Assembly: GCF_057098645.1 (NCBI RefSeq)
Contig: NZ_CM169472.1
Length of the DNA: 64,000 nt
Strand: one strand, 5' to 3'
How positions within the stretch are numbered: the stretch's first letter is position 1; each line of letters opens with the position of its first letter. This document shows, piece after piece, positions 60,001-64,000 of the stretch. Position numbers: made by a program.

Positions 60001-63000
60001 TTAAGGTTCTTGGCTATGACAGAGATGGAGAATACCAATTTACAAGCATTAACCAGGATCACAGGCCTATAACGTTGCCTTATCATCAAGTAGCAAAGGT
60101 GGAGTATGTAGCTGGTATTCTGAAGCAATCTCGCCATCTGGATGACATCGAGGCAAGGGAGTGGCTGAAAAGTTCGTGACTTCATCGTCACATAGCTGGT
60201 AACCAGTGGCCAGAAGAAACGTTTGGGTGAGGAGGATAGATGGCGTTCACTGACCTTGAATATCAAGCGGTCAAAAAAGAAGTTCACCAATTCATTGAAA
60301 GCATAAGGCCGCCTGAACATATCCGCAATGAACTGGATATTGTTTATAGCATCAATGACCAAACGATAGATATCGGCGAACAGCGCCCCGTGTGGCAGGG
60401 CAACCCAGGTGAAACAAACATCCTGCCATCAGCAAGAATCAAGTACATACGTTCTCTGGATAGATGGAAAATCTATTGGATGCGGAAGGATATGAAATGG
60501 CATCAGTACAGTACTGAACTTTCGCTGACTGATGCGCTTGAGCTTGTGCGTGCTGACCCGGATTGCTGCTTCTTCGGATGAGTGAAGAGACGTTTGGATG
60601 ATGGATGATCGCAGAGATGCTCGTAGAGCATACAGCGATGCAGGAGAATTTATGGCACTTAATTTAGAAAGAATATCTTTTATAACCCCATTTGATAGCA
60701 GCGAAGAACCCAACCAACCGACGCTTAATTTTACATGCAATGAATTTCCTGCGCGGCTATCAATTGATTTCAGGGTTGGTATGATCGGGTTGAAACCAAA
60801 TTCAAGATATAATTTGGGTATTATGGTAATCCCCGCGCACCTAATTATAAAAAAAGGTGAGGAAATTCAATTCCCTGACGGCTCTTCGGAATCAGTTTCA
60901 CTTTTCATCGATACGAAAGATAGCCATTTTGAAACAGGGGTTGGCGGACAGGTAATAGTAACATTGAAAGAAATTAGGGTCCCAGCTAAAGGGCTGTATA
61001 GTGTTATAGGGATATTGCAAGATAATGAAGACCCTAAAAATGAACTTCATAAAAATGAATCATTTTTCACCGTAGAGCTATTATGAGTGACGACAGTAAT
61101 TTAAATAATCATGGAAAGCAAGACACCAACATATCTGAAAGCCGGAGGTTGAAGGTTGTTGGCGGTTCCGATTTTGAGGCTGAATTTGATAATTCTCCCA
61201 CCAAGGTGCAAAATAATTACATAAAACCGCCACAAACGGAGGAAGAAGTGGGAACGATCAGCAGAGAGGAACTTGATGCTCGCTTAGCTGCTAATAAAGC
61301 AGAGATGGAGTCTATTGCTTCTTCCATTAGGGCTGACATGGCTCTATCTCGTGAAAGCGTTAATGTCCAATTTGCATCACTTAATGCAGCCATAAGCTCT
61401 CTATCGTCCAAGATCGATGGAAAGATGGATAGCGCTGCTGGCGATATAAAAGCAATTAATGGGAGATTCGAAGGAATTCAAGGACAAATAACAGGGGTTA
61501 ATACCGCAATTAGTGGTGTTCAGTCGGGTATTTCTATACGATTAGCCATTTTTAGTGTCATTATCGCTGTAATAGTTGCGATTCCCGGGCTGGTATCAGC
61601 TTTAAAGTCAGACCACGCACCTTTGCAACAGCCTTCCACTTTGCAAGCGCCGCCACAAAATACCCAGCCAACAGACAACAAAAAAACCACTCCCCAGCAT
61701 TAACGCATTAACCCGGCCTCAGCGCCGGGTTTTCTTTGCCTCACGATCCCCACACCTAAAAACACATTGAACCGCCCCGGTTTTCCTGGAGAGTGTTTTA
61801 TCTGTGAACTCAGGCTGCCAGATCATCGTTTCTGATGGAAGCATAATAAGCTTTTTCTGCTTCTGCCGGAGGGATATGACCCAGCCTTCCCAGCAATCGT
61901 CGATTGTTATACCAGTCCACCCACGTGAGTGTGGCCAGTTCCACTTCTGCACGGTTTTTCCAGCTCTTACGGTGTATTACCTCCGCTTTGTAAAGACCAT
62001 TGATGCTCTCCGCCATCGCGTTGTCATACGAGTCACCTGTACTCCCTGTTGATGCCAGCAGTTTTGCTTCTTTTAGTCGCTCCGTATAGGCCAGTGATAC
62101 ATACTGAGAACCTTTATCACTGTGATGGACTGTGCCGGACGGCCGACGGGCCCACAACGCCTGCTCCAGTGCATCCAGCACGAATGTCGTTTCCATAGAC
62201 GATGAGACTCGCCACCCCACGATACATCCGGCAAACACATCAATGATGAACGCCACATAGACGAAGCCCTGCCATGTGCTGACGTAAGTAAAATCAGCCA
62301 CCCACAGCTGGTCAGGACGTTCTGCCACGAACTGACGGTTTACGCGGTCGCCTGCGGAAACGGCTTTCCGGCTGACGGTAGTACGGACCTTTTTACCCCG
62401 GAGAACACCGGCAAGTCCCATAACCGCCATGAGACGTGCCACAGTGCATCTGGCCACTCTGATACCTTCCCGTAACAACTGACGCCAGACTTTACGCACA
62501 CCGTATACCTTGTGATTTTCATCGTATACGCGCTGTATCTCTCTCTTCAGCCAGTCATCGCGCTGAGCACGGGCACTGCGTTTATCAGGATGATGTCGCT
62601 GTTGCTGACAGTGGTAATACGTTGACGGGGCAATATGCAGTTCACTGCATACCGGTCCGACCCCGTACTGCTCACGCAGCTTATCCAGCAGCGGCATTAT
62701 TTTTTCCAGAGGCGGTCGAACTCCGCCTTCGCAAAATAAGCGGAAGCCTGGCGAAGGATATCGTTACTGCGGCGCAGTTCACGATTTTCACGTTCCAGCT
62801 CTTTCAGACGCTGACGTTCAGCGGTGGTGAGTCCACCATCACCACTCCCGGTATCCCGCTCATGCTGACGAACCCACACACGCAGAGTCTCTGGTGTACA
62901 GCCAATCTTTGGGGCAATGGAACAAATTGCCGCCCATTGTGAGTCATATTCGCCCTGACTTTCCAGAACCATACGAACTGCCCGTTGACGGACCTCGGGG

Positions 63001-64000
63001 GAAAAACGTGTATTTTTAGTCATCCTGTTTACCTCTTTCTCAGGGAGTTTAGTCTCCAGGATTCCCGGGGCGGTTCACATAACCAATTGTATTTGTTGAA
63101 AAATAAATAGATACAACTTGCTAAACAACGCAATCCAGATCTCCCTCAAATCTCTTTATTTATCCTGTCGAATTCCTACAACAAAATAAAACACCATAAG
63201 AATCAATACGATATTTGAAAACCAAGAGAATTTATCATTTTGCTATTGCCATTAATTTATCATTCCGATAAAGTTCACCCATCAGCAGGACGCACTACTC
63301 ACCAGGGCGGTGAATATACAACGATTCGAATATGAATCTACGGCGCTGACAAAGCGCAATAACCAAAGTGAACTTTGGGGTGTGGTGAAGGGTTCATGGA
63401 CGGGAATATGTCGCACGTAAAGCGGCGAGGCCTGTAGGACTATTGCCGAATTGAAGTAGGCCGAAACAGGTCGAAATGGGTCTCCCACCTACCACACCAC
63501 CAAAGTTCATCAGGAGGTCTATATGACACGCAGAACTCAGTTCAAAGGCAATTCACATTCTCGTCGTCGTGAGCGTTTAAAGGCAAAGGCATTAGCTAAC
63601 GGCGTGCTGGCCCGCGAAGAAGCAATAAGTTCAGAAGTATTACACCGCCCTACTCTAAGCAGAGCGCAGATTCAGGCTAAAGGTACTCACGAAACGCCTG
63701 AGCGCATAGAAGACGCTAAGCCAATTAAGTTCATGGCACAGGACGTGATCTGGCAGCAGAAAGAATACAGACGCAATCTGGAGCGAGCGGCCATTGTGTA
63801 CGCGAATGAGTTTGGACATAAGCAACCAGAAACTGGTGTATGTCTTCCAAACGTAGCCATTTACGCTGCAGGCTACCGGAAATCCAAACAACTGACAGCA
63901 AGATAACTTGTGTTGGTCGCCAGAAAATGAAATTAGGCAGCAAACCACTGTATGAGAGGTGAGATATGGAAGCATTAGTAGTAGAGCGAAGCGAGGATGG

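Follow-up and report, generated by a model that had tools for sequence, protein, structure and literature searches.

An IS629 insertion between the cI-operon terminator and the OL/PL region of an H-19B-type lambdoid prophage

Related IS629 insertions and the host prophage

IS629 duplicates 3-4 bp at its insertion site, has no sequence-specific target and lies in prophages in 62% of its copies (PMC3271280). A circular copy-out-paste-in transposition intermediate is known for it from the literature, and its excision is promoted by IEE (PMC9943667), which means that strains possessing IEE can lose such insertions again. The nearest functional precedent for the insertion described here is the comparison of the Stx2 prophages phiPA2 and phiPA8 (Gong, Chakraborty & Koudelka 2023, PMC10810198), where IS629 was likewise found in lambdoid prophages of pathogenic E. 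coli. The phenotype of phiPA2 came from a disrupted methyltransferase gene, whereas the phiPA8 copy is intergenic, and the authors took this intergenic IS629 as the reference state for function (PMC10810198). Unlike phiPA2, the prophage in our window (the whole 64,000-nucleotide stretch of DNA analysed, from contig NZ_CM169472.1 of assembly GCF_057098645.1) has no gene disrupted by its IS629 copy and carries no stx.

EHEC prophages also carry IS629-family copies closer in position, in this cI-N neighbourhood; they were found in 2011C-4251, O157:H7 F7349, Z1323HEC0108 and 14EC001. Like the copy in the window, these four are flanked by 3-bp duplications, run antisense to phage transcription and are located in or beside the immunity region. 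Their sites differ, since one separates the DUF3024 gene from stk within the cI operon and the remaining copies are downstream of N; none of the four lies between Timm and OL, where the window copy is inserted. The corresponding spacer of phage HK542 (EF120458) shares with the window the order cI, cargo genes, Timm, spacer, oL3-oL2-oL1/pL, nutL and N, and both Timm and the first 63 bp past the insertion point align. The window differs from HK542 in its repressor and operators, which are of H-19B type (29% cI identity), and in the interruption of the spacer by the IS.

The window begins with chromosomal genes from yehI through btsS (1-13.3 kb), followed by a lambdoid prophage in reverse orientation. 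The prophage genes are ordered as an nleA-like effector, tail genes, terminase, lysis genes, a nanS-p-like esterase, Q, P, O, cII and cro, and after cro the plus strand carries cI and then N. The window ends before int and the remainder of the early-left operon. Between Q and the esterase, no stx-sized ORF was found in the window. The IS is hosted by a lambdoid prophage that carries nleA but no stx, has immunity of the H-19B type and is integrated beside btsS/mlrA. The features of the control region of this prophage are the following:

59373..59456, unstranded: OR0-OR3 operators, upstream of cI, mapped from the annotation of ST2-8624 (GQ499358)
59475..60179, plus strand: cI repressor, 234 aa, LexA-like with Peptidase_S24 (Pfam)
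60240..61703, plus strand: three cargo genes downstream of cI, for DUF3024 (113 aa), 162-aa and 206-aa proteins (ORFs in the lambda rexAB position)
61710..61739, plus strand: Timm-type intrinsic terminator of the cI operon (terminator scan; stem-loop 61710-61731, then T-tract)
63199..63272, unstranded: operators OL3 (63199-63215), OL2 (63231-63247) and OL1 (63256-63272), identical to the GQ499358 operators
63246..63274, plus strand: PL-like promoter, TTGCCA, 17-nt spacer, TAAAGT (promoter scan), overlapping OL2 and OL1
63523..63906, plus strand: N antiterminator gene, 127 aa, intact (Pfam N_peptide, 2.2e-15; PHROG 271)

On the right side, OR1-3 were also identical to the GQ499358 operators and OR0 had one mismatch. 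The cI protein is 100% identical to the cI of 14EC001 and to that of ST2-8624, the latter annotated as 'similar to H-19B'. Judged from the identity of cI, OL1-3 and OR1-3, the immunity region is of the H-19B/ST2-8624 type. The Timm-type terminator has an 8-bp GC-rich stem and a 6-nt loop (fold of -17 kcal/mol, z = -2.7) and aligns with the curated 'Timm' feature of HK542, and the layout of the PL-like promoter is that of the curated pL/oL of the same phage. With regard to the cargo genes, the DUF3024 protein matched PADLOC PDC-S43 (7e-42), a candidate-defence label; the 162-aa and 206-aa proteins were assigned no function by PADLOC, NCBIfam or PHROGs, their PHROGs families being of unknown function. 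The order of these genes is unchanged in 14EC001, where the site is IS-free.

The IS629 copy and its mosaic allele

The inserted element and its parts were located as follows:

61765..61767, unstranded: target-site duplication CAT, left copy (the empty site has a single CAT)
61768..63077, minus strand: complete IS629-type insertion sequence of the IS3 family, 1,310 bp, aligned without indels to four annotated or related copies
61768..61792, unstranded: IRR, the terminal inverted repeat distal to orfA (repeat finder, 25 nt)
61810..62697, minus strand: orfB, 295 aa, HTH_21 and rve integrase core (Pfam), with D135, D194 and E230
62434..62512 (IS positions 667-745), unstranded: mosaic patch (table of variable positions)
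62626..62742, minus strand: predicted programmed -1 frameshift region with ALIL pseudoknot (Rfam RF01497)
62697..63023, minus strand: orfA, 108 aa, HTH_Tnp_1 (Pfam)
63053..63077, unstranded: IRL, the terminal inverted repeat adjoining orfA (repeat finder, 25 nt)
63078..63080, unstranded: target-site duplication CAT, right copy, directly outside the IS end

The terminal inverted repeats are imperfect, with 22 of 25 positions complementary (88%) and TG...CA ends, and their arms read TGAACCGCCCCGG... and ...CCGGGGCGGTTCA. Direct reading of 61000-64000 placed the start of TGAACCGCCCCGG at 61768 and the finish of its reverse complement at 63077. OrfB scored 311.8 bits against the NCBIfam model transpos_IS3, for a cut-off of 160, and the ALIL pseudoknot scored 120.9 bits against the Rfam gathering score of 50. 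Within the ALIL match, an A6 slippery run (62700-62705) precedes the orfA stop, which overlaps the start of orfB. A predicted -1 slip at this run would give a continuous OrfAB protein of 404 aa, as obtained by translating the fusion in silico, and homologous IS copies are labelled 'programmed frameshift' by PGAP. The structure of this IS629 copy is complete and its coding capacity intact, and we infer that it is still mobile. No second IS629 copy able to form a composite transposon was found within the window.

These results agree with the first-pass annotation, which had described a complete IS629-type element with a CAT duplication; the repeats, orfA/orfB, the ALIL pseudoknot and the alignment to annotated IS629 copies all bear this out. 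The range that it gave, 61767-63290, does contain the element, but the IS itself covers 61768-63077 and the remainder adds 213 bp of the OL/PL region. At the level of sequence, the element has the IS629/IS3 traits that were checked, namely the length, the repeats, the duplication, the overlapping ORFs with ALIL and the DDE/HTH transposase. With the IS629 of EHEC and Shigella (isoforms annotated as IS1203 or IS3411-like) it shares the 1,310-bp length, the 25-bp TG...CA repeats, orfA/orfB with the -1 frameshift, the ALIL pseudoknot, the DDE transposase, the 3-bp duplication and the prophage location. It differs from them in being a private mosaic of O103/O145/O55-like and O157/Sakai-type sequence.

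ISfinder practice counts as an IS629 isoform a copy that shares 95% or more of its nucleotides with the reference sequence. The present copy is 95.7% identical to the IS629 mobile_element of LC567824 (Stx2 phage Stx2_499; 56 differences, no indels) and 98.9% identical to the IS629 of the O55:H7 phage JLK-2012 (JQ347801; 15 differences, no indels), figures that relate to depositor-annotated IS629 copies and not to the ISfinder/Shigella sonnei reference. The nearest copies, at 99.2% identity (10 differences), are those of O103:H2 12009, O145 strains and one Stx2a phage, which are identical to one another. No copy above 99.2% identity was found among 5,426 complete E. coli genomes and 50,697 phage records.

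All ten differences from the O103/O145-type copies fall inside the mosaic patch and all ten carry the O157/Sakai-type base, which indicates that the copy is a recombinant of two IS629 subtypes. The O157/Sakai-type patch measures 79 bp at minimum and 162 bp at most, in a backbone that is O103/O145/O55-like, and the sole protein change that it brings is K63 instead of Q in OrfB. The three IS629 sequence types sampled here are 52-66 nt apart in pairwise comparison, in agreement with the published 55 to 60 bp between three IS629 types (PMC3271280). In its variable positions, this allele combines two IS629 subtypes and is private to the present copy.

Position in the Timm-OL spacer and effects on the control region

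The IS lies between Timm and OL3, as the first-pass annotation had placed it. It begins 27-36 bp downstream of the Timm-type terminator, the range depending on where the terminator end is taken and including the 27 bp noted before. From the IS end, the distances to OL3, OL2 and OL1 are 121, 153 and 178 bp, and the TTTATCA sites that had been put at about 150 bp correspond to OL2 and OL1. The PL-like promoter lies 170 bp downstream of the IS. Without the insertion, the Timm-OL3 spacer is non-coding and about 146 bp long. No annotated ORF runs across the insertion site in the IS-free relatives, which is in keeping with the earlier statement that no ORF was disrupted, and no record annotates any feature in the spacer. 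A sensitive Rfam scan of 61600-64000 found no RNA family other than the ALIL of the IS itself. The insertion has damaged none of Timm, OL1-3, the PL-like promoter or N, whose sequences are the same as in phages that lack the IS.

Given this layout, the insertion is quite probably a near-neutral passenger. An IS629 isoform would have entered the non-coding Timm-OL3 spacer in one recent copy-out-paste-in transposition, duplicating CAT. Each recognisable control element is intact, namely the cI operon with Timm as well as OL1-3, PL and N, and the transposase reads antisense to phage transcription.

The only predictable consequence of the insertion is the longer OL-OR distance. Between the centres of OL3 and OR3 there are 3,759 bp with the IS vs 2,446 bp without it, a difference of 1,313 bp. 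This lengthening does not appear in the first-pass annotation. In vivo, the looping factor J, an effective concentration, follows a power law of distance, from d^-1.05 to d^-1.14; at 10 kb, looping by lambda CI is still about 50% (PMC5435920). Applying this scaling to the increase, J should fall to about 0.61-0.64 of its former value, a drop of about 36-39%. Since OL3 and OR3 are both intact and the sites resemble the 3+3 looping layout of lambda, weaker OL-OR looping might make repression less stable or change PRM autoregulation and, with them, spontaneous induction. The predicted drop in J is small for such an effect, however, and lambda CI is efficient at looping far beyond 3.8 kb. The looping evidence comes from lambda CI and not from the H-19B-type repressor, on which the literature offered nothing specific regarding looping or IS effects on control. 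An altered induction through looping is therefore considered rather unlikely.

A broader reading would make the prophage a functional switch variant, with an OL-OR loop enlarged by 54% and with Timm and PL separated by 1.3 kb of antisense DNA that is untranslated and accessible to Rho, carrying in addition an IS629-subtype recombinant that would imply gene conversion between co-resident lineages. We regard it as unlikely; if it were true, the lysogeny stability of this nleA-carrying prophage could change measurably.

Transcription signals of the IS were considered as well, since an IS promoter, terminators or antisense transcription might alter PL-N expression, or cause read-through of the cI operon or interference with it. 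With the transposase on the minus strand, its transcription runs antisense to that of the phage, leaves PL-N behind and converges on the 3' end of the cI operon. Terminator-like hairpins were found on the plus strand at 62046-62061, inside the IS, and on the minus strand at 61782-61770, at the IRR end. The former is weak and is the sole plus-strand hairpin inside the IS, and its T-run sits in a stretch where IS629 subtypes vary; the region has 8 terminator-like matches for a shuffle expectation of 4.0 +/- 2.1, a modest excess. No sigma-70-like site reading out of either IS end was detected at a relaxed threshold of at least 8/12, nor any promoter across the simulated circle junction at at least 8/12 consensus, in a consensus scan that weak or hybrid promoters can escape. 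Moreover, PL has its own promoter downstream of the IS, independent of upstream transcription, and Timm already ends the cI-operon transcripts ahead of the IS. Rho-dependent termination might act within the antisense RNA of the IS, which is untranslated and 1.3 kb long, and so change the read-through beyond Timm. Altogether, an effect through transcription signals is decidedly unlikely, and the two outward activities that the first-pass annotation had proposed, a promoter acting on PL-N and a terminator, are not supported by the sequence, the transposase pointing away from PL and the internal hairpin being weak.

Origin of the insertion

The empty site was searched with 400 bp of each flank joined through one CAT, 800 bp in total. 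This query was recovered at 100% identity and in one uninterrupted piece in E. coli 14EC001 and in O55:H7 USDA5905, and at 99.4-99.6% identity in six further genomes. Direct reading of the 14EC001 locus confirmed the empty-site string with its single CAT. The Timm-OL module is unbroken in every listed Stx1/Stx2 phage record that shares it; it is 100% identical in H-19B, ST2-8624 and BP-4795, and the 359 bp from Timm to nutL match H-19B at 100%. The comparison with IS-free relatives that had been suggested at the outset gave identical empty sites in two strains. Among 5,426 complete E. coli genomes, none had the filled site. The filled junction was also absent from phage records, and the exact junction strings were not present in GTDB species representatives, IMG/VR or metagenome contigs.

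Some candidate matches were rejected on inspection. A 'full-coverage' filled-site match in 14EC001 proved to combine the empty site with another IS some 0.8 kb away, and apparent same-site matches in O45:H2, O157:H7 and other genomes were insertions at different sites.

The perfect duplication, together with contiguous empty sites of 100% identity, points to a simple insertion, and on this reading of the junctions the CAT-flanked IS629 is one. Since the filled site was found nowhere in the collections searched, a recent and private event fits the data; the insertion looks private to the source strain, and we infer that it is recent. The untargeted transposition of IS629, its 3-4 bp duplications and its bias towards prophages (PMC3271280) fully account for the anatomy seen here. 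An assembly error or the remnant of an IS-mediated rearrangement is very unlikely to have produced this structure, although EHEC genomes carry several IS629 copies (at a median of 4 and a maximum of 52 places each) and repeats can mislead assemblers. Against such an origin, the 3-bp duplication is perfect, empty sites elsewhere match the joined flanks at 100% and without a break, and the copy has a unique mosaic allele and not a collapsed consensus.

As a near-neutral passenger, which we consider its probable status, the insertion concerns a known element; what is new is the site and the private mosaic allele. Its mechanistic importance is small, as many IS629 insertions have been well described from EHEC and EPEC prophages, where they abound. 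To the evidence for recombination between IS629 subtypes, the mosaic allele makes a small contribution. The insertion can serve as a strain-specific marker, as a PCR spanning 61650-63200 would yield about 1.55 kb from the filled site vs about 0.24 kb from the empty one. It also provides a natural construct with which the tolerance of the H-19B-type switch to a longer OL-OR spacing may be tested.

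Mosaic sequence and orientation of the IS629 copy

The 1,310-bp IS629 copy (61768-63077, minus strand), located between the cI-operon terminator and OL3 of the lambdoid prophage, was compared with other IS629 copies. The element differs from the O103/O145-type copies at 10 positions, every one of them within 62434-62512 (IS positions 667-745), and at each it carries the O157/Sakai-type base. The copy is therefore a mosaic, and the clustering of O157/Sakai-type bases implies gene conversion between IS629 subtypes, over a stretch no shorter than 79 bp and no longer than 162 bp. 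An identical copy was not found in 5,426 E. coli genomes, nor in the phage records.

IS629-family insertions were also compared in the cI-N neighbourhoods of related E. coli prophages. The transposase is antisense to cI and N transcription in all five insertions (the window, the 14EC001 locus L003, and L004, L005 and L006), a small sample (n = 5) partly related by descent. The duplications at these insertions are CAT, ATA, GAT, AAA and GAA.

Chromosomal flank and the prophage end at btsS

In a comparison with 5,426 complete E. coli genomes, the chromosomal flank (1-21000) reached no more than 99.0% identity, its best match being to the O145:H28 group and to a Korean isolate, so this collection contains no close relative of the source strain. 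In the flank, yehI appears to be broken into two ORFs, one at 113-1345 and the other at 1383-2585, and it is annotated as frameshifted in the nearest relative. An OrzO-P type I antitoxin RNA (3083-3158, 99.9 bits) lies directly upstream of yehL.

The prophage adjoins btsS, at the mlrA/yehV site. Comparison with Z1323HEC0422 placed the following genes at this end:

within 13300-17400, DinI-like gene
14286-15494, 402-aa protein of unknown function
16146-17387, nleA-type T3SS effector gene

An IS1 transposase ORF (17987-18490, minus strand) was also observed close to the tail-fibre end of the prophage (about 17900-18500); no IS1 is listed there in the closest complete genome, whose two matching pieces together span 96% of 1-21000.

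Toxin locus, nin region and cI-operon cargo

The region 46176-50063 is an stx-negative "toxin locus"; it contains no stx-sized ORF. Its features, and one from the nin region, are:

within 46176-50063, Q antiterminator
within 46176-50063, nanS-p-like SASA esterase
48167-48333, sRNA STnc100
48505-48966, TerB-like ORF
49186-49261, tRNA, anticodon CAT
52411-54183, plus strand, 590-aa ORF oriented opposite to the neighbouring nin-region genes

The 590-aa ORF gave no match in Pfam, NCBIfam or PADLOC, its sole match being full-length to phrog_9230 (PHROG), of unknown function.

Three cargo genes (60240-61703), in the same orientation as cI, lie where lambda has rexAB. One encodes a DUF3024 protein that matches the candidate defence family PDC-S43 (PADLOC, 7e-42). 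For the other two products, of 162 aa and 206 aa, the only matches were to PHROGs families of unknown function; the 206-aa protein has a hydrophobic segment at its C-terminus. The cargo genes may be superinfection-exclusion or defence cargo.
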